Positions 53,675 to 64,000 of a stretch of 64,000 bases of DNA are shown here, piece after piece (position 1 is the first letter of the stretch; every line of letters begins with the position of its first letter). The DNA is from Pseudomonadota bacterium (GTDB taxonomy: Bacteria; Pseudomonadota; Alphaproteobacteria; G022571365). The notes under the pieces were generated by a model, which saw only the letters and a program-made list of their open reading frames with translations, was not told where the DNA came from and made no database searches. The stretch spans positions 14,402 to 78,401 of the forward strand of contig JACZXZ010000002.1 in assembly GCA_022571365.1 (NCBI GenBank). The letters run 5' to 3'. Made by a program: the position numbers and the translations under genes.

Positions 53675-54988
53675 TCAATGATACCGGTCCCGTGCCCGGT
53701 GTTCGAACCGGGCGATGTCGGCGGCATTGAGGCTGACTTTGAAATGTGCGAAGCCCGCGTCGTCGTGGCGGCTTAGCACCTCGCCACGGTCGTAGAGCCA
53801 GGCCATGGCTGCGCCGTCCGCCAGATCCACGGTGAGCTCGACGATTTGGCGAGATGCCCTGAGCCGTCCGTCGATCAGTGTCAGCAGCGTATCCAGGCCC
53901 TCGCCGGTGAGCGCCGAGGTGGGGACTGCGTGGCCGTTGCGCCGGGCCTGATTGTAGGCCCCCCGCTTCGCTTCGTCGTCGAGCAGATCGAGCTTGTTCA
54001 ACACTTCGATCAGGCCGCTGTTCACCGCGTCGCCCAGGCCAAGGTCGCGGAGCACCCTGTGGACATCCTCCTTCTGCTCCGCGCTATCGGGATGGGCGAT
54101 ATCGCGCACGTGAAGGATGACATCGGCCTGGCGAACTTCCTCTAATGTGGCTCGGAACGCCGCCACCAAGTCGGTCGGCAGATCGGAGATGAAGCCCACT
54201 GTGTCGGACAGGATGACCGGGTGGCCCGAGGGCAGCTTGAGGACGCGCATGGTCGGATCGAGCGTCGCGAACATGAGATTCTTGGCATCCAGCTCGGCCT
54301 TGGTGAGGCGATTGAACAGGGTTGATTTGCCAGCGTTGGTGTAGCCGACCAGTGAGATGATCGAATACGGCATCCGCCGGCGCGCGTGGCGGTGGAGCCC
54401 GCGGGTCCGCTTGACCCCCTCCAGCTCACGCTTCAGCCGCGCGATTCGCTCACCGATGAGCCTGCGGTCCACTTCGATCTGAGTCTCGCCCGGCCCGCCG
54501 ATGAAGCCATAGCCGCCGCGTTGCCGTTCCAGGTGGGTCCAGCTCCGTACCAGGCGGCTTCGTTGATAGGACAGGTGCGCCAGCTCGACCTGCAGGCTGC
54601 CCTCCCGCGTGCGCGCCCGCTCGCCGAAGATTTCGAAGATCAAGCCGGTGCGGTCGATCACCTTGCAGTCCCAGGCGCGCTCAAGGTTACGCTGCTGAAC
54701 GGGCGTGAGGCCGGCATCCACGATCGCCACTTCCACCCTTTTCGCCTTGACCAAGGCGGCGAGGGTTTCCACCACGCCGGCGGCGAACAGAGTCGCCGGG
54801 CGCGGCCGGTTCACCCGGATCGTGTCCGTGTGGACAACCGTGAGATCGATGGCATGGGCAAGGCCGATTGCCTCCTCCAGCCGCGCCTCGGGTGTCCGTC
54901 CGGCCTCTCTCGCCGACTTGAGAACAGGATGCAGGACTACCGCCCGGCCTGTCGATGGTGCCTCGCGAGAAGGGAGGTTGCGCGTCAA
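53675..54988 (-). CDS. hflX: GTPase HflX
   Basis: N-terminal HflX domain, G1 GYTNAGKSTLFN, G3/G4 motifs; directly downstream of hfq. Confidence 0.92.
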   Translation of the reverse strand: MTRNLPSREAPSTGRAVVLHPVLKSAREAGRTPEARLEEAIGLAHAIDLTVVHTDTIRVNRPRPATLFAAGVVETLAALVKAKRVEVAIVDAGLTPVQQRNLERAWDCKVIDRTGLIFEIFGERARTREGSLQVELAHLSYQRSRLVRSWTHLERQRGGYGFIGGPGETQIEVDRRLIGERIARLKRELEGVKRTRGLHRHARRRMPYSIISLVGYTNAGKSTLFNRLTKAELDAKNLMFATLDPTMRVLKLPSGHPVILSDTVGFISDLPTDLVAAFRATLEEVRQADVILHVRDIAHPDSAEQKEDVHRVLRDLGLGDAVNSGLIEVLNKLDLLDDEAKRGAYNQARRNGHAVPTSALTGEGLDTLLTLIDGRLRASRQIVELTVDLADGAAMAWLYDRGEVLSRHDDAGFAHFKVSLNAADIARFEHRARDRYH

Positions 54989-54989
54989 A

Positions 54990-55241
54990 TCAGCCTTCGT
55001 CGTCCTCCTTGTCCGGTTCGAACAGCTGGATTGCTCCCGTCGGCATCACCGTCGAAATGGCGTGTTTGTAAACCAACTGGGAATGGTGATCGCGGCGCAG
55101 GAGCATGGAGAAATTGTCGAACCAAGTGATGTTTCCCTGAAGCTTGACGCCATTGATCAGAAAGATGGTCACAGGCGTCTTGTTCTTGCGGACGTGGTTC
55201 AAGAACACGTCCTGCAGGTTCTGTGATTTTTCTGAGGGCAT
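54990..55241 (-). CDS. hfq: RNA chaperone Hfq
   Basis: 83 aa; Sm1 ([11 protein letters not shown]...[13 protein letters not shown]) and Sm2 (YKHAIST) motifs. Confidence 0.97.
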
Positions 55242-58460: not shown

Positions 58461-59867
58461 TCAGGCGTCGAATTTGTGAGACTTCTGCCCGCCGTAGACG
58501 CCGAGCGACTTCAGCTTGCGGTGCAGGGCGGAGCGCTCCATCCCGATAAATGCCGCCGTCCGCGAGATGTTGCCGCCGAAGCGCGTAACCTGCGCCATGA
58601 GATACTCCCGTTCAAAGATTTCGCGTGCCTGGCGCAACGGCAGTCCCATCACTTCGCCGCTCTTTTCCCAACGCAGCACGGGGGGGGTGATGCTACTGAT
58701 CTCGGGCGGCAGCATGTCGGCGCGGATCGGCTGGTCGGCTTTGCCGGGCGCCATGATCAGCAGCCACTCAACGACGTTGCGAAGCTGGCGCACGTTGCCG
58801 GGCCACTCATAGGCCTGGAGCGCGGCCAGGGTGTCGTCGCCCAACTTGCGCGCCGGCAGGCCGGCTACCTCGGCTATCAACGCCATGAGGTGTCGGGCCA
58901 AGAGCGGGATGTCCTCGCGCCGCTCCGTCAACGGCGGCACCCATAGCGGAACCACGCTCAGGCGGTAGTACAGGTCCTCGCGGAACCGGCCGGCGGCGAC
59001 TTCCGCCTGCAAGTCGCGGTTGGTCGAGACGATCACCCGAACGTCGACCTCGACGCCGGCTCGACCGCCGAGGCGCAGGAAGGTCTGTTCCTGAAGCACG
59101 CGAACGATCTTACCCTGCGTTTCCAGCGGCATATCCGCGACCTCGTCGAGCACAAGCGTCCCGTTATGGGCTTGCTCGAAGGTTCCGACCTTGCTCGGCG
59201 TGCCGGCCCCTGCCCCGCCCGGCTCGATCCCGAACAACTCGACTTCCATCCGATCGGGCTGCATCGTCGCGCAGTTCAGAATAACGAACGGCCCGTTGCC
59301 GCGGCGCGAGCGCCCATGCAGCAGCCGTGCGATCATCTCCTTGCCCACGCCGGCCGGTCCCGTGATCAGGACCCGGCTGCTGGTGGGCGCGACGCGATCG
59401 ATGGCCTGGCGCAGCTGGTTGATCACCGCGGACTTGCCGATGAGTTCCGAACCGACGCCCGCCCGCAATCTCAGCTCTTCGTTTTCGCGCCTGAGACGCG
59501 CCGCCTCGATGGCGCGCTCGACAATGACCAGCAGGCGGTCGGCCTTGAATGGCTTCTCGATGAAGTCGTAGGCCCCCTTCTTGATCGCGGTCACGGCGGT
59601 CTCGATGTTGCCATGGCCGCTGATCATCACCACCGGAACCGAGGGGTGCTCGTTCATGACGATGCCGAGGACCTCGAGTCCATCCAGTTTGCTATCCTGG
59701 AGCCAGATATCGAGGATCACCAGGTTCGGCCGCCGGCTTCGGACGGCCTCAAGCGCGCTCTGGCCGTCGGCCGCCTGGCGGGTGTGGTAGCCCTCATCCT
59801 TGAGGATGCCGGCGATCAACAACCGAATGTCGGTTTCGTCATCGACGATCAGGATATCATGAGCCAT
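58461..59867 (-). CDS. ntrX: Sigma-54-dependent response regulator NtrX
   Basis: Receiver domain ([11 protein letters not shown]...), AAA+ sigma-54 activation domain (GPAGVGKE; GAFTGA-like region; ESELFGHE equivalents), C-terminal HTH; start overlaps ntrY stop. Confidence 0.88.
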
Positions 59868-62166
59868 CGTCAGTCGTCTTCGTGGTTGGTGAGTGAGGAG
59901 TGTCAACAGACGGGGTTTCGTCTTGTGGCGCCTGGTCCTCGCCCGCGTCGAAGACCAACCTGACCCGGGCGCCGCCGCCCTCGCGGTCCTCCAGGGTTAG
60001 GTCGGCACCGTGATCTTCCATGATTTTCTTAACGATCGCCAGCCCCAGACCGGTGCCATTGCTGCGGGTGGTCACATACGGTTCGGTGTACTGATCGCGC
60101 TCCTCCGACGGGAAACCGGTGCCGTTATCCTCGATCTCGATGACGACCCGGCCCTGGTGGGGCTCGGCGACGCGGACGACGACACTACCCGGCGGCGGCT
60201 TCGAGGTGGAAGACGACTCGCGGCTCAGGATCGAATCGATCGCGTTCTGCAACAGGTTGGTCAGGGCCTGGCCGAGCTGGCGCCCGTCGCACCGCAGCAT
60301 GATGGCTCGATCCGGGAGCTCGACCGAAAACGCGATGTCGGGATGGGCGCTCTGTTGCAGGAATATGGCTTGCCGGCACAGCCCGGAAAGGTCCTCCGAC
60401 TTCATGACCGGTGCCGGCATCCGGGCAAAGGCCGAGAACTCGTCGACCATGCGCTCGATATCGCCGACCTGCTGGACGATGATGTCGGTGCAGGCTTTGA
60501 AGATCTCCGGGTCGCTCTTGATCTGCTTGAGATATTTGCGCTTCAGCCGCTCCGCCGAAAGCTGGATCGGGGTCAGCGGATTCTTGATCTCGTGGGCGAT
60601 GCGCCGGGCCACGTCGGCCCAGGCGGCCTGGCGCTGCGCGGTCAACAGCTTGGTGACGTCATCAAAGGTAACCACAAAGCCTTTGGCCTCGTCGTCGACG
60701 CGCTCCGCGGCGATCCGCACAAGGAGGGTCCGCGTGTGGCCGGAGCGGGTGATCTTGATCTGCGATTGGACGAGCCGCAAGGGATGGCGACGGGCGGACT
60801 CGATCAGCTCGGCCATCTCCGGCAGGGCCTTGGCCAGTTTCTGTCCGATGAGCTGCTCCACATTTACCGATAGCAAGCGAGAGGCCGACCGGTTGAGGAG
60901 GTTGATCCGCCCCGCACGGTCGAGACCGATCACCCCCGCCGAGACGCCCTCGAGCACAGTTTCGGTGAAGCGCCGCCGGATGTCGAGCTGGCGATTGGCT
61001 TCCACCAGCTCGCTCCGCTGGGTCGCAAGCTGGCTGGTCATGCGGTTAAAAGCGCGGTTGAGCGAGCCGATCTCGTCGGTGTCCGGTCCATCGGCCACAC
61101 GGACCGTGAGGTCTCCGGCCCTCACCTGCTCGGTCGCGGTGATGAGGCGGCTGATCGGCCGTACCAACCGCGTGGCGAAGGCGAGTCCGACCCAGATCGC
61201 GGCGAGCAGCAGCAGCAACGCGCCCGCGGTGAAAATCATGACGAAGGTGATCTGCAGGCCGGAGCGCCGGCCCTCCAGCTGTTCATAGATGGCGACGGCG
61301 GTCTGGGTCCGCTCGATATGGCCCAACACCCCGGGTTCGACAAAGCGGCCGACGATCAGGAATGTATCGAGGAAGGGGTCGAGCTGGACCAGCGCGCGCA
61401 CCCGGTCGTCCGCCTCGCTGGTAAGGATGGCAATCTCGCCGTTGCGGGCCTTCTCGAGCGCCCAGACCGGCAGCGGCTCGAACTCGAGGGCGAAAGTGAG
61501 GCCCGAACGGGCGAACACCCGGCCTTTAGCGTCGAAAATCAGCGCTTCCGAGAGGGATCTGAGCGCCGCCTGGGCGGCGACGAACTGCTGGAACCGGCCT
61601 GGATCCTGCATCGACAGCAGGCTCTCGCGACGAAGGTCGTTCCCCATGGCCAGGACGTCGGAGCGGATGTTCTGCTGATGCTCGTCCAGATAGGCCTCGG
61701 TCACGGCGAGGGACTCCTTCAGCGCCGTGCGCACCCGCTCGCTGAACCACGCCTGGACACCGAAATCGAAAAACAGCACCGAAAACACCGAGACCGCAAT
61801 GGCCGGCGTCACCGCCACCAGGCTGAACAGCAGGACCAGCCGAACATGCAGCCTTGAGCCGGCCGAACCGCGGCGGCGCTCGGCCCAGACTTGGACGATG
61901 CGCCGAGCGATCACCGTGCCCAGCAGCAGCAGCACCACCAGATCGACGTTGAGCAGCAGGAGGACCGTGTCCGGATCGGGCCCCAATGGCGGCGAGCCGG
62001 TCAACGCGGCATAGGTCGCGATACCCGAGAGGATGGCCGCCGCCGTCAAGGCAAAGGCCAGCTTGCGCGCTAGACCGACGCGGTTCGCCCAACGCATCAA
62101 TTGCACGGAAAGTTCGCTTGGCGCTCCGGCAGAGTCGACCGTCATCGTGAAACCCGTCGCGGGCAC
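59857..62166 (-). CDS. ntrY: Sensor histidine kinase NtrY
   Basis: 769 aa; N-terminal TM segments, HAMP, PAS, H-box [18 protein letters not shown], HATPase G-boxes (DNGTGF; GTGLGLAIV). Confidence 0.9.
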
Positions 62167-62212: not shown

Positions 62213-63094
62213 TCATTTTACGCCCCGGGCCACCCGGATGTCCAATTTGCGGATCTTCTTTCTCAATGTGTTGCGGTTGAGGCCGAGCAATCGCGCCGCC
62301 TTGAGCTGGTTGCCCCGGGTCGCCTTCAGGCTCAGGGAGATCAGCGGCCTCTCGACCTCGCGCAGCACCCGCTCATAGAGCCCGGTCGCCGGCAGGCCGC
62401 CCCTGTGGGCGTCGAAATAGGCCTTTAAATGATGTTCGACCGCCTGGCCCAGATTGCCGTCTTCCGGTGTCCCCGCCGGGGTGGGCGGCGCCGTGACATC
62501 GGCCAGCTCAGCCTCGATGATATCGACCCCAATGACCTCTTCCGCGTGCAGCACGGCGAGGCGCCGGATCAGATTCTCGAGCTTGCGGTCCGCATCCGAT
62601 GCGTTCTGTTCCAGGAGCTGCGCCGCGCCGCGAATGCCCGAAAGCGGGGTCTTGACCTCGTGGGCCAAAAGCGCAGCCATCGCCGTCACCGAACGGGCCG
62701 CGTTGCGATGCGTGGGCTGCCGATCGATCTTGCGGGCGATCGACTGTTCGTGAAGCCAGACCACGATCCGGTCCGGGAGTTCGGCGAGCGGCGCCGCTTG
62801 AATCGCCACCAATCGGGCGCCCATGCGCGGCGTCTCCAGGGTGACGCCGTATTCGGAAACGCCGGCGCCATGGGCGCGGACCTGCTCAAGCAACGCGAAC
62901 AGCGGGCTGTCCGCGGGGATGAGGTCGTGCAGCGGCCGCCCGCGCAAGTTGGCGGCGCTGGTGTCGAAGAACTGCTCCGCCGCCATGTTGACATAGCCGA
63001 TGCGGTCCTCGGGACCGATCACCAGCACCGGACCGGCCAGCGCGTTCAAGACCGCGCCGGCGTCGACTTCGAGCCGGTCCTCGCGTTGCCGCAC
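62213..63094 (-). CDS. In-frame NtrB'-'NtrC fusion ORF: NtrB N-terminal PAS + H-box (DHp) joined to NtrC C-terminal AAA+ lid remnant + Fis-type HTH; probable deletion derivative of ntrBC
   Basis: N-terminal part [30 protein letters not shown] (NtrB PAS) and [20 protein letters not shown] (H-box); C-terminal part [28 protein letters not shown] ... [31 protein letters not shown] (NtrC end). No HATPase, receiver or sigma-54 AAA+ core. Only ~0.94 kb lies between dusB stop and ntrY start. GTG start at 63094 is tentative. Confidence 0.7.
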
Positions 63095-63108
63095 GGAGAG
63101 CCCGCCGG

Positions 63109-64000
63109 TCACGCCGCCATCTTCTCCATGACCGGGGCTTTCTCCATGACCGGGGCATAGAAGGCGCGAATCGCCGCGCGTACCGCCCCGGGGTCCGCGA
63201 GGCGGTTGATCCCGGCGCGGAACTCGGCCGAGCCGGGAAGACCCCTGCTGTACCAGGCGATGTGTTTGCGCGCCATGCGCACGCCGGCTTCGGCGCCATA
63301 GTGGATCATCATGTCCTCGTAATGGTCCAGCACGGTTTGGAGCTGCTCCCTGAGCGACGGGGCGGCCAGGCGCTTTCCGGTCCTCAGGAAATGGATGACC
63401 TGCCTCAGAAACCACGGCCGGCCACAGGTGCCGCGGCCGATCATCACGCCGTCGGCTCCCGATTCGGCGAGACATTGCTTGACCTCCTCGAGCGAGGTGA
63501 TGTCGCCGTTCGCAATCACCGGGATGTGCACCGCCTCCTTCACTTCTCGGATGAACTTCCAGTCCGCCCGTCCCCGATAGAGCTGGCAGCGGGTGCGCCC
63601 GTGGACCGTGATCATCTGAATGCCGCAGTCCTCGGCGATTTTGGCAAGGCTGGGCGCGTTGCGTGCGCACTCGTCCCAACCGGTCCGCATCTTCAGCGTC
63701 ACCGGCAGGTCAACCGCCTCGACCGTGGCCTCGAGGATGCGCGCGGCGTGGACCTCGTCGCGCATCAGAGCCGATCCGGCATGGCCCTTGACCACTTTCT
63801 TGACCGGACAGCCGAAGTTGATATCGATGATCGCGGCCCCCCGGTCCTGGTTGAGCTTGGCCGCCTCCGCCATGACCTCGGGCTCGTAGCCGGCGAGCTG
63901 AACCGCCATGGGGTGTTCCTCGGCGCAGTTCGACGACATTTTCATGGACCGGCGAGTCCGGCGGACCATGGCCTGGCTGGCGATCATCTCGGAGACGACA
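63109..64000 (-). CDS. dusB: tRNA-dihydrouridine synthase B (NifR3), N-terminus beyond window
   Basis: [12 protein letters not shown] catalytic Cys motif, TIM-barrel FMN sites (TVHGRTR; IANGDI); ORF runs to window edge. Confidence 0.9.
63122..63157. repeat. 18-bp tandem duplication in the 3' end of dusB (adds APVMEK to C-terminus)
   Basis: TTCTCCATGACCGGGGC(T/A) x2; translates on minus strand as ...[15 protein letters not shown]. Confidence 0.85.

Follow-up and report, generated by a model that had tools for sequence, protein, structure and literature searches.

Does the single open reading frame (ORF) between dusB and ntrY in the alphaproteobacterial contig JACZXZ010000002.1 mark a genuine loss of the NtrB/NtrC two-component system, a new signalling protein or an error of assembly? 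The ORF lies in a 64,000-nucleotide stretch of that contig (positions 14,402 to 78,401; hereafter the window), and an earlier note on this DNA had read it as an in-frame fusion of the beginning of ntrB to the end of ntrC, left by an internal deletion of about 1.7 kb. Comparison with an intact relative bears out this reading at the DNA level: the locus is a real, young, NtrBC-inactivating in-frame fusion. The best combined explanation, to which we assign a probability of about 0.55, is that the deletion left a remnant under relaxed selection whose product may still occupy DNA sites independently of σ54.

A deletion fuses ntrB to ntrC

The ancestral arrangement is found on a metagenome contig, L004, which carries intact dusB-ntrB-ntrC-ntrY-ntrX-trkA-dat-HAD-hfq-hflX-groESL genes in the gene order of the window, with an NtrB of 372 aa and an NtrC of 481 aa. 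The two halves of the fusion match it with 97.6% and 96.8% nucleotide identity. Nucleotides 1-534 of the fusion correspond to nucleotides 1-534 of the L004 ntrBC pair and nucleotides 526-900 to nucleotides 2187-2561, which makes the deletion 1,661 bp in size relative to L004. The two alignments overlap by a 9-nt microhomology that reads CGCGAGCTC at both parental sites in L004, within ..D-R-E-L.. in NtrB and ..V-R-E-L.. in NtrC. The earlier note had placed the junction at about 62560-62600 and had suspected recombination across a shared REL stretch; the alignment puts it inside that interval, and the sequence signature identifies the event as a microhomology-mediated deletion of the classical type, between two copies of a 9-nt repeat that encodes R-E-L in both genes. 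The loss of 1,661 bp yields a single frame because ntrB and ntrC overlap by 4 nt in different frames.

Profile searches divide the product in the same way. Residues 1 to about 177 derive from NtrB and residues from about 177 to 299 from NtrC; the first segment is 93% identical to NtrB of L004 and the second 93.5% identical to residues 358-481 of its NtrC, residues 1-357 of NtrC being missing. Among the NCBIfam models, NF008293 (NtrB, NR(II)) aligns residues 16-174 to its positions 7-162 of 349 with 65.6 bits (cutoff 240), and TIGR01818 (NtrC) aligns residues 175-290 to its positions 353-463 of 463 with 89.7 bits (cutoff 558.6), so that the C-terminal part can be taken as NtrC-derived, as had been claimed. 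Pfam recognizes a PAS domain (residues 20-118), a partial HisKA domain (residues 144-183) and HTH_8 (residues 250-290), and the same scan of the fusion protein gave no HATPase_c, Response_reg or Sigma54_activat match. The protein motifs quoted in the earlier note are all present in the ORF. On the evidence of these matches and of the L004 comparison, what the deletion removed is DHp helix 2 and the ATP-binding domain of NtrB together with the receiver and the σ54 AAA+ core of NtrC, which agrees with the domain losses read from the window itself.

NtrC of L004 has the GAFTGA motif, and the ancestor was therefore a conventional σ54 activator. Because the domains concerned have been deleted, phosphotransfer, PII-controlled kinase and phosphatase activity and σ54 activation by NtrBC are abolished at the locus, and we regard the deletion and the loss of NtrBC signalling here as close to certain. 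The organism would nevertheless not be NtrBC-null if the locus were dead and a second intact ntrBC pair lay elsewhere in its genome. No second copy was found in the 64-kb window by tblastn with intact NtrB and NtrC, the examined loci of relatives all carry single-copy ntrBC at the dusB-ntrY slot, and to our knowledge paralogous ntrBC pairs are unusual in Alphaproteobacteria. We consider a second pair improbable, and the suggestion of an NtrBC-null background is supported for this locus.

The fused allele in independent assemblies

A junction that lies within a 9-nt repeat common to ntrB and ntrC also invites the suspicion, raised in the earlier note, that an assembler joined full-length ntrB and ntrC over a short repeat or built a chimera. 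The repeat is, however, far under assembler k-mer sizes, and DNA identical to the window ORF is present on three other contigs (L001-L003) from three samples. A search of 5.8 billion proteins returned at least 19 protein clusters with 91-99% identity and the same architecture, and the same junction was recovered in independent ENA, Logan, JGI and NCBI assemblies made by different assemblers. At least 74 amino-acid changes have accrued among the alleles after the event, and a second junction type is present on a 192-kb contig. An assembly collapse is thus exceedingly improbable.

The second junction type belongs to a 343-aa form represented by two of the 19 clusters, one of which sits on the 192-kb contig with window-like synteny. 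In this form nucleotides 1-663 of ntrBC are joined to nucleotides 2178-2561, a 1,529-bp deletion with the microhomology ACGTGCGC[A/G]AG. The fused alleles have 23 derived sites in common, counted in the fusion ORF, ntrY and ntrX against two intact relatives, and therefore form one clade, in which informative flanking sites place the 343-aa form as sister to all 299-aa forms. With this placement, the 299-aa form may have either a nested or an independent origin. We considered a derivation of the 299-aa form from the 343-aa form through a second, 132-bp deletion, as hinted by the junction codon of the window, AAG (K), which is the same in the 343-aa form. The hint was set aside: since most 299-aa alleles have GAG (E) at this codon and K goes together with a derived N-to-T change, the K of the window is probably a later point change.

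In a population of an uncultured marine alphaproteobacterium of roughly 66% GC, the fused allele has become fixed and has begun to diversify; the nearest named genome is a Kiloniellales metagenome-assembled genome with 81% identity and an intact ntrB. When GTDB species genomes and JGI metagenome contigs were scanned with the fusion protein, no fusion was found in close relatives, the other loci all having intact ntrB and ntrC. Three matches reaching query residue 227 (L013, L034 and L036) were considered as extra fusions and rejected, since their ORF listings revealed ordinary ntrB and ntrC genes. One contig with the 343-aa form comes from Arctic Mid-Ocean Ridge subsurface (deep-sea) sediment (BioSample SAMN11268098; PMC7768721).

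Selection on the fused gene

Segregating changes among four fused alleles were used to assess the constraint on the ORF. The ratio of nonsynonymous to synonymous changes (N:S) is 36:12 in the fusion ORF as against 30:57 in ntrX and trkA together (Fisher p = 6.6e-6), and about 2.2-2.7:1 would be expected for the fusion sequence under neutrality. Nei-Gojobori ratios of nonsynonymous to synonymous substitution rates (dN/dS, or omega) among the fused alleles are likewise close to 1, ranging from 0.5 to 1.9 in the NtrB part and from 0.4 to 2.6 in the NtrC part, compared with 0.24 and 0.19 for the same segments between two intact relatives and with 0.11-0.37 for ntrX and trkA. The H-box His has changed to Y in one 343-aa allele and to R in another; the window allele still has the phospho-acceptor His, but HExxN has become HExxT in its clade. 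These His and N replacements indicate that constraint on phosphotransfer is gone.

The changes are unevenly spread along the protein. In a census of 20 alleles, which holds at least the 74 amino-acid changes mentioned above, the regional distribution departs from expectation (chi-square p = 0.0019). Against an expectation of 17.8, the DNA-binding domain (residues 228-299) has 9 changes (binomial p = 0.008); residues 220-242 and the recognition helix are unchanged throughout, and changes are about half as dense in the PAS and DNA-binding domains as in the centre. The N:S of the central chimeric segment (residues 119-227) is 15:0 versus 15:10 for the PAS and DNA-binding domains (p = 0.006), and the latter ratio is indistinguishable from the 55:39 of the adjoining ntrY. 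With the dS of neighbouring genes as a yardstick, omega is estimated at about 1 for the centre and about 0.6-0.7 for the folded ends. Neither stops nor frameshifts interrupt the reading frame in the window or in any of the 19 related clusters. This absence of stops is weak evidence because just 2.3-2.6 nonsense changes are expected per 74 missense changes, which gives a probability of 0.07-0.10 of seeing none. From these patterns we infer a young remnant on which selection is strongly relaxed: the middle of the fusion ORF drifts freely, and its PAS and DNA-binding ends are under at most weak constraint.

The centre has a peculiarity of its own. Five alleles show 19 nucleotide differences in this segment (62432-62758 of the window, minus strand), of which 18 fall at first or second codon positions and none is synonymous. 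From the flanks about 6-8 synonymous changes would be expected, and a high GC content at third codon positions (GC3) explains the shortfall only partly. An overlapping antisense gene as the cause of the missing third-position changes was ruled out by the split of 7 versus 11 between codon positions 1 and 2. The 243-codon antisense ORF at 62429-63160 (plus strand; GC3 0.77) was not counted as a gene, being a shadow frame of the kind typical of high-GC DNA.

Recurrence in other marine lineages

A scan of 1.84 billion cluster representatives, a profile search and a search with the protein P0269 revealed at least six other junction types at the dusB-ntrY slot in other marine lineages, or nine or ten in all. 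Each is an in-frame joining of an NtrB N-terminus to an NtrC C-terminus at a junction of its own: P0022 (324 aa), P0023 (294 aa), P0025 (295 aa), P0165 (189 aa), P0166/P0268 (233 aa), P0471 (191 aa) and P0269/P0275 (258 aa), the last together with P0365, P0366 and P0179 (208-237 aa). Every fusion for which a contig was retrieved sits between dusB and ntrY. In all fusions the breakpoints fall at NtrB residues 120-220 and NtrC residues 358-457 (L004 numbering), PAS is kept, and the CA domain, the receiver (REC) and the AAA+ core are lost. The whole DNA-binding domain is kept except in P0165, which retains the recognition helix alone. The other fusions mostly keep DHp helix 2 or drop the H-box entirely, and their identity to the window ORF is 30-52%. 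The NtrB part of the window ORF is closer to many intact NtrBs (60-72% identity) than to the other fusions (45-52%), and the events are therefore independent.

The pair P0269 and P0275 is more diverged (dS 0.86) and has an overall omega of 0.27, with 0.27 in PAS, 0.65 in the linker, 0.12 in the C-terminal domain and 0.09 in the HTH; the P0269 family reaches down to 53% identity, with variable linker length. Judged by these ratios, the fusion of the P0269 lineage is an old gene under purifying selection; the allele in the window, by contrast, is young and evolves almost neutrally. Older fusions of independent origin apparently serve as σ54-independent DNA binders.

Since the recurrence queries were themselves in-frame fusions, out-of-frame remnants are under-detected, and any excess of in-frame events is no more than suggestive. 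The tails of short NtrB-like matches were compared with alternative-frame ntrB and ntrC translations, an approach of low sensitivity, and almost all proved to be simple ntrB frameshifts, with one probable out-of-frame NtrB-to-NtrC deletion (P0130). Other NtrC remnants were also seen: in P0440 the AAA+ core is deleted and a receiver and the DNA-binding domain are left, in P0247 the C-terminus of NtrC is fused to an AtpF-like N-terminus, and P0188 and P0191 join NtrC remnants to unrelated N-termini.

The usual evolutionary direction is from one-component to two-component systems, and a collapse of NtrBC would reverse it. We offer only tentatively, as something short of probable, the generalization that NtrBC is repeatedly collapsing by in-frame deletion to a selected PAS-plus-Fis-HTH one-component regulator in marine Alphaproteobacteria, with the window at the earliest stage, having two junction alleles and a drifting linker. 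No description of natural NtrB-NtrC fusions was found in the literature searched. Gene fusion by deletion and the loss of a regulator are known types of event; as far as our literature searches show, there is apparently no earlier description of the NtrB-PAS/NtrC-HTH architecture, of its repeated appearance at a single locus or of purifying selection on an old representative.

The product and its possible residual role

AlphaFold (AF2) models of the product gave predicted local distance difference test scores (pLDDT) of 85-93 for PAS, 61-87 for the DNA-binding domain and below 50 for residues 126-219, a partition that agrees with the substitution pattern of ends and centre. Residues 215-292 can be aligned over the full length of the four-helix core of Fis (PDB 1ety, Fis residues 27-95; PDB 6m10) and with the NtrC DNA-binding domain of known structure (PDB 1ntc, residues 5-89). 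As modelled, two parts of the product can fold, the PAS domain from NtrB and the Fis-like DNA-binding domain from NtrC, and they are joined by about 95 chimeric residues that are predicted to be disordered. The description of the product as a DHp dimeriser does not hold, given that DHp helix 2 is deleted, the DHp (HisKA) four-helix-bundle unit is incomplete and the centre is of low confidence. Judged from its domain content, the fusion cannot autophosphorylate, be phosphorylated or contact σ54, and it is free of PII control because the PII target is the deleted ATP-binding domain.

Fis and the isolated C-terminal domain of NtrC fold, dimerise and bind DNA by themselves, and NtrC is able to repress some promoters by mere binding. 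The 1,661-bp deletion between the copies of the 9-nt repeat fused ntrB to ntrC in frame and, in the mechanism that we propose, would have left NtrYX as the sole Ntr-type system at the locus. Translation of the ORF probably persists, its start, Shine-Dalgarno sequence and GTGA coupling to dusB being unaltered. Any residual activity would most likely lie in the dimeric DNA-binding domain, which would occupy or repress former NtrC sites independently of σ54, and the PAS domain may influence this occupancy. We judge the odds of a retained DNA-binding role to be about even.

Several observations weigh against such a role. Omega for the whole ORF is about 1, the N:S of the folded domains on their own (15:10) does not depart significantly from neutrality, and the stop-free alleles are weakly informative. 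The weak constraint on the ends could come from selection against misfolding or against polarity on ntrYX. The DHp remnant cannot drive dimerisation because helix 2 is missing, and P0165, an independent fusion, keeps half the HTH, so that in-frame remnants can exist without a DNA-binding function.

Some of these observations lend weight to the alternative that the ORF is a functionless relic, either still open since the deletion is young (dS about 0.02-0.05) or kept in frame only against polarity on ntrYX. A relic would account for the near-neutral N:S, the two independent losses of the phospho-acceptor His with further H-box residues altered, the predicted disorder of the centre, and a probability of finding no stop that falls short of significance. 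Co-transcription, on which the polarity argument depends, fits the terminator-free gap between the fusion and ntrY and the overlap of another lineage's fusion stop with the ntrY start. Later length changes, namely a 3-nt deletion in L045 and the 132-nt (44-codon) difference between the 343-aa and 299-aa forms, are likewise in frame. Against a relic stand the halved density of amino-acid changes in the PAS and DNA-binding domains, the invariance of residues 220-242 and of the recognition helix across 20 alleles, and the older fusion of the same architecture under purifying selection. In addition, a σ70-like site at the end of the ORF, a consensus match only, could give ntrYX a promoter of their own and would weaken the polarity argument. 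We regard the relic as a serious contender, though one held at somewhat less than even odds. A relaxed remnant with residual σ54-independent occupancy of DNA sites is the reading that we prefer.

Neighbouring genes and operon layout

The features of the locus are given in Table 1. The GTG start of the fusion ORF at 63112 overlaps the dusB stop as GTGA (63109-63112), and the spacer from the fusion stop to the ntrY start (62166) is 46 nt long and without a terminator; the start coupling to dusB, the stop and the spacer to ntrY are all as in the intact ntrBC pair.

Table 1. Features of the dusB-ntrX segment of the window (positions are those of the 64,000-nucleotide stretch)
Feature	Position	Strand	Evidence and remarks
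dusB (nifR3)	63109..64000	-	TIGR00737, 351 bits; 5' end outside the window
Fusion ORF, NtrB N-terminus and NtrC C-terminus in frame	62213..63112	-	299 codons and stop; Pfam, NCBIfam and L004 alignment
NtrB-derived PAS domain (aa 20-118)	62759..63055	-	Pfam PAS, 38.5 bits; AF2 pLDDT 85-93
NtrB H-box / DHp helix 1 remnant (aa 144-176)	62585..62683	-	HisKA profile positions 4-45 of 66 only; AF2 pLDDT <50
Deletion junction, 9-nt microhomology	62579-62587	-	Overlap of the two L004 alignments; CGCAAGCTC in the window, codons R-K-L
NtrC AAA+ lid remnant (aa 179-207)	62492..62578	-	TIGR01818 from position 353 on
Fis-like DNA-binding domain of NtrC, complete (aa 215-292)	62237..62470	-	Pfam, PDB alignments, AF2
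HTH_8 core (aa 250-290)	62243-62365	-	Pfam HTH_8, 50 bits (cutoff 22)
σ70-like site, TGGACA-18-TAAAAT	62215..62244	-	10/12 consensus match only; spans the last codons and stop of the fusion ORF
ntrY, intact	59857..62166	-	Pfam NtrY_N, HAMP, PAS, HisKA, HATPase_c
ntrX, intact, 468 aa from ATG at 59867	58461..59867	-	NCBIfam NtrX NF051870, 716 bits (cutoff 600); gene call in L001

The other members of the block had been described as intact, which is true of ntrY and ntrX; dusB runs off the end of the window. The synteny itself is widespread, yet to call it near-universal was an overstatement, as ntrBC is present at the ntrYX locus in 674 of 917 (74%) genomes with ntrYX (PMC9409073). Pfam searches of 30 other genes of the window found housekeeping functions only, without glnA, glnB, amtB or rpoN, and no general gene decay was seen among them.

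Selection on ntrY may also have shifted. In the fused lineages its N:S of 55:39 differs from the 30:57 of ntrX and trkA (p = 0.0017), and its omega between two intact relatives is 0.17; the NtrY sensor thus seems to be relaxed or adapting specifically where NtrBC is gone. The σ70-like site lies 49 nt upstream of the ntrY start and, as a prediction from its consensus match only, could be an internal ntrYX promoter that the deletions had to spare.

Two further sites vary between close relatives. The 3' end of dusB contains an 18-nt tandem repeat (APVMEK; window 63113-63150, minus strand) directly upstream of the ntrB or fusion start, overlapping the Shine-Dalgarno region of the downstream gene. 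One copy is present in L045, two in the window, L001 and L046, three in L004 and four in L047, and the repeat is degenerate in L005-L007. The 5' region of hflX varies as well, at its junction with hfq (window about 53675-55240): in the window lineage and L005 the called gene has 437 aa and directly adjoins hfq, and in L004, L044 and L045 it has 379 aa and follows hfq after a gap of about 175 nt.

Significance and comparison with known systems

The locus is a clean natural in-frame knock-out of the canonical nitrogen two-component system for which a relative about 97% identical preserves the ancestral state, so that the event, its 9-nt microhomology mechanism and its aftermath can be read base by base against L004. 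If the recurrence reflects selection, it would describe a route from a two-component system to a one-component PAS-HTH regulator, and the NtrC DNA-binding domain would be reusable without σ54. The locus also draws attention to a class of proteins that annotation pipelines label "DNA-binding protein Fis" or "PAS domain protein" and that mark the loss of NtrBC control in marine lineages; deep-sea sediment is the source of at least one such lineage. Were the ORF nothing but a relic, it would still show, as a well-dated example, how a gene begins to decay, and would caution against reading NtrBC function into partial domain matches. The frame is open in the window and in the 19 clusters, which sets the ORF apart from a pseudogene with a disrupted frame.

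The direct source of the fusion is NtrB/NtrC (GlnL/GlnG) of the alphaproteobacterial dusB(nifR3)-ntrB-ntrC-ntrY-ntrX cluster, whose genomic slot it occupies. It differs from that source in having neither DHp helix 2, the HATPase domain (the PII target), the receiver Asp domain nor the GAFTGA AAA+ core. Set beside NtrB, it has the PAS domain and lacks a complete DHp and an HATPase_c domain with its N, G1, F and G2 boxes; set beside NtrC, it has the Fis-type HTH and lacks the receiver and the GAFTGA AAA+ core.

With Fis (about 98 aa) the 299-aa fusion shares the core, at residues 215-292, while it is without the Fis beta-hairpin arm and carries a 214-residue N-terminal extension made up of PAS and the disordered linker; its score of 69.3 bits against the Fis equivalog NF001659 is below the cutoff of 99. 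In architecture it resembles the PpsR/CrtJ repressors, which combine PAS with a C-terminal HTH_8, act independently of σ54 and have neither ATPase nor receiver. There is no specific homology to them, as TIGR02040 gives 28.3 bits (cutoff 275.4) with the HTH alone aligned, and the fusion has another origin, a single PAS and a putative function. Regulators of the RegA/ActR/PrrA type, which consist of a receiver and a Fis-type HTH without AAA+, are examples of an NtrC-like DNA-binding domain working without a σ54 ATPase. They keep their receiver and a cognate kinase, whereas the fusion has neither, and the remnant comparable to them in domain content is P0440, in which the receiver and the DNA-binding domain have both been retained.

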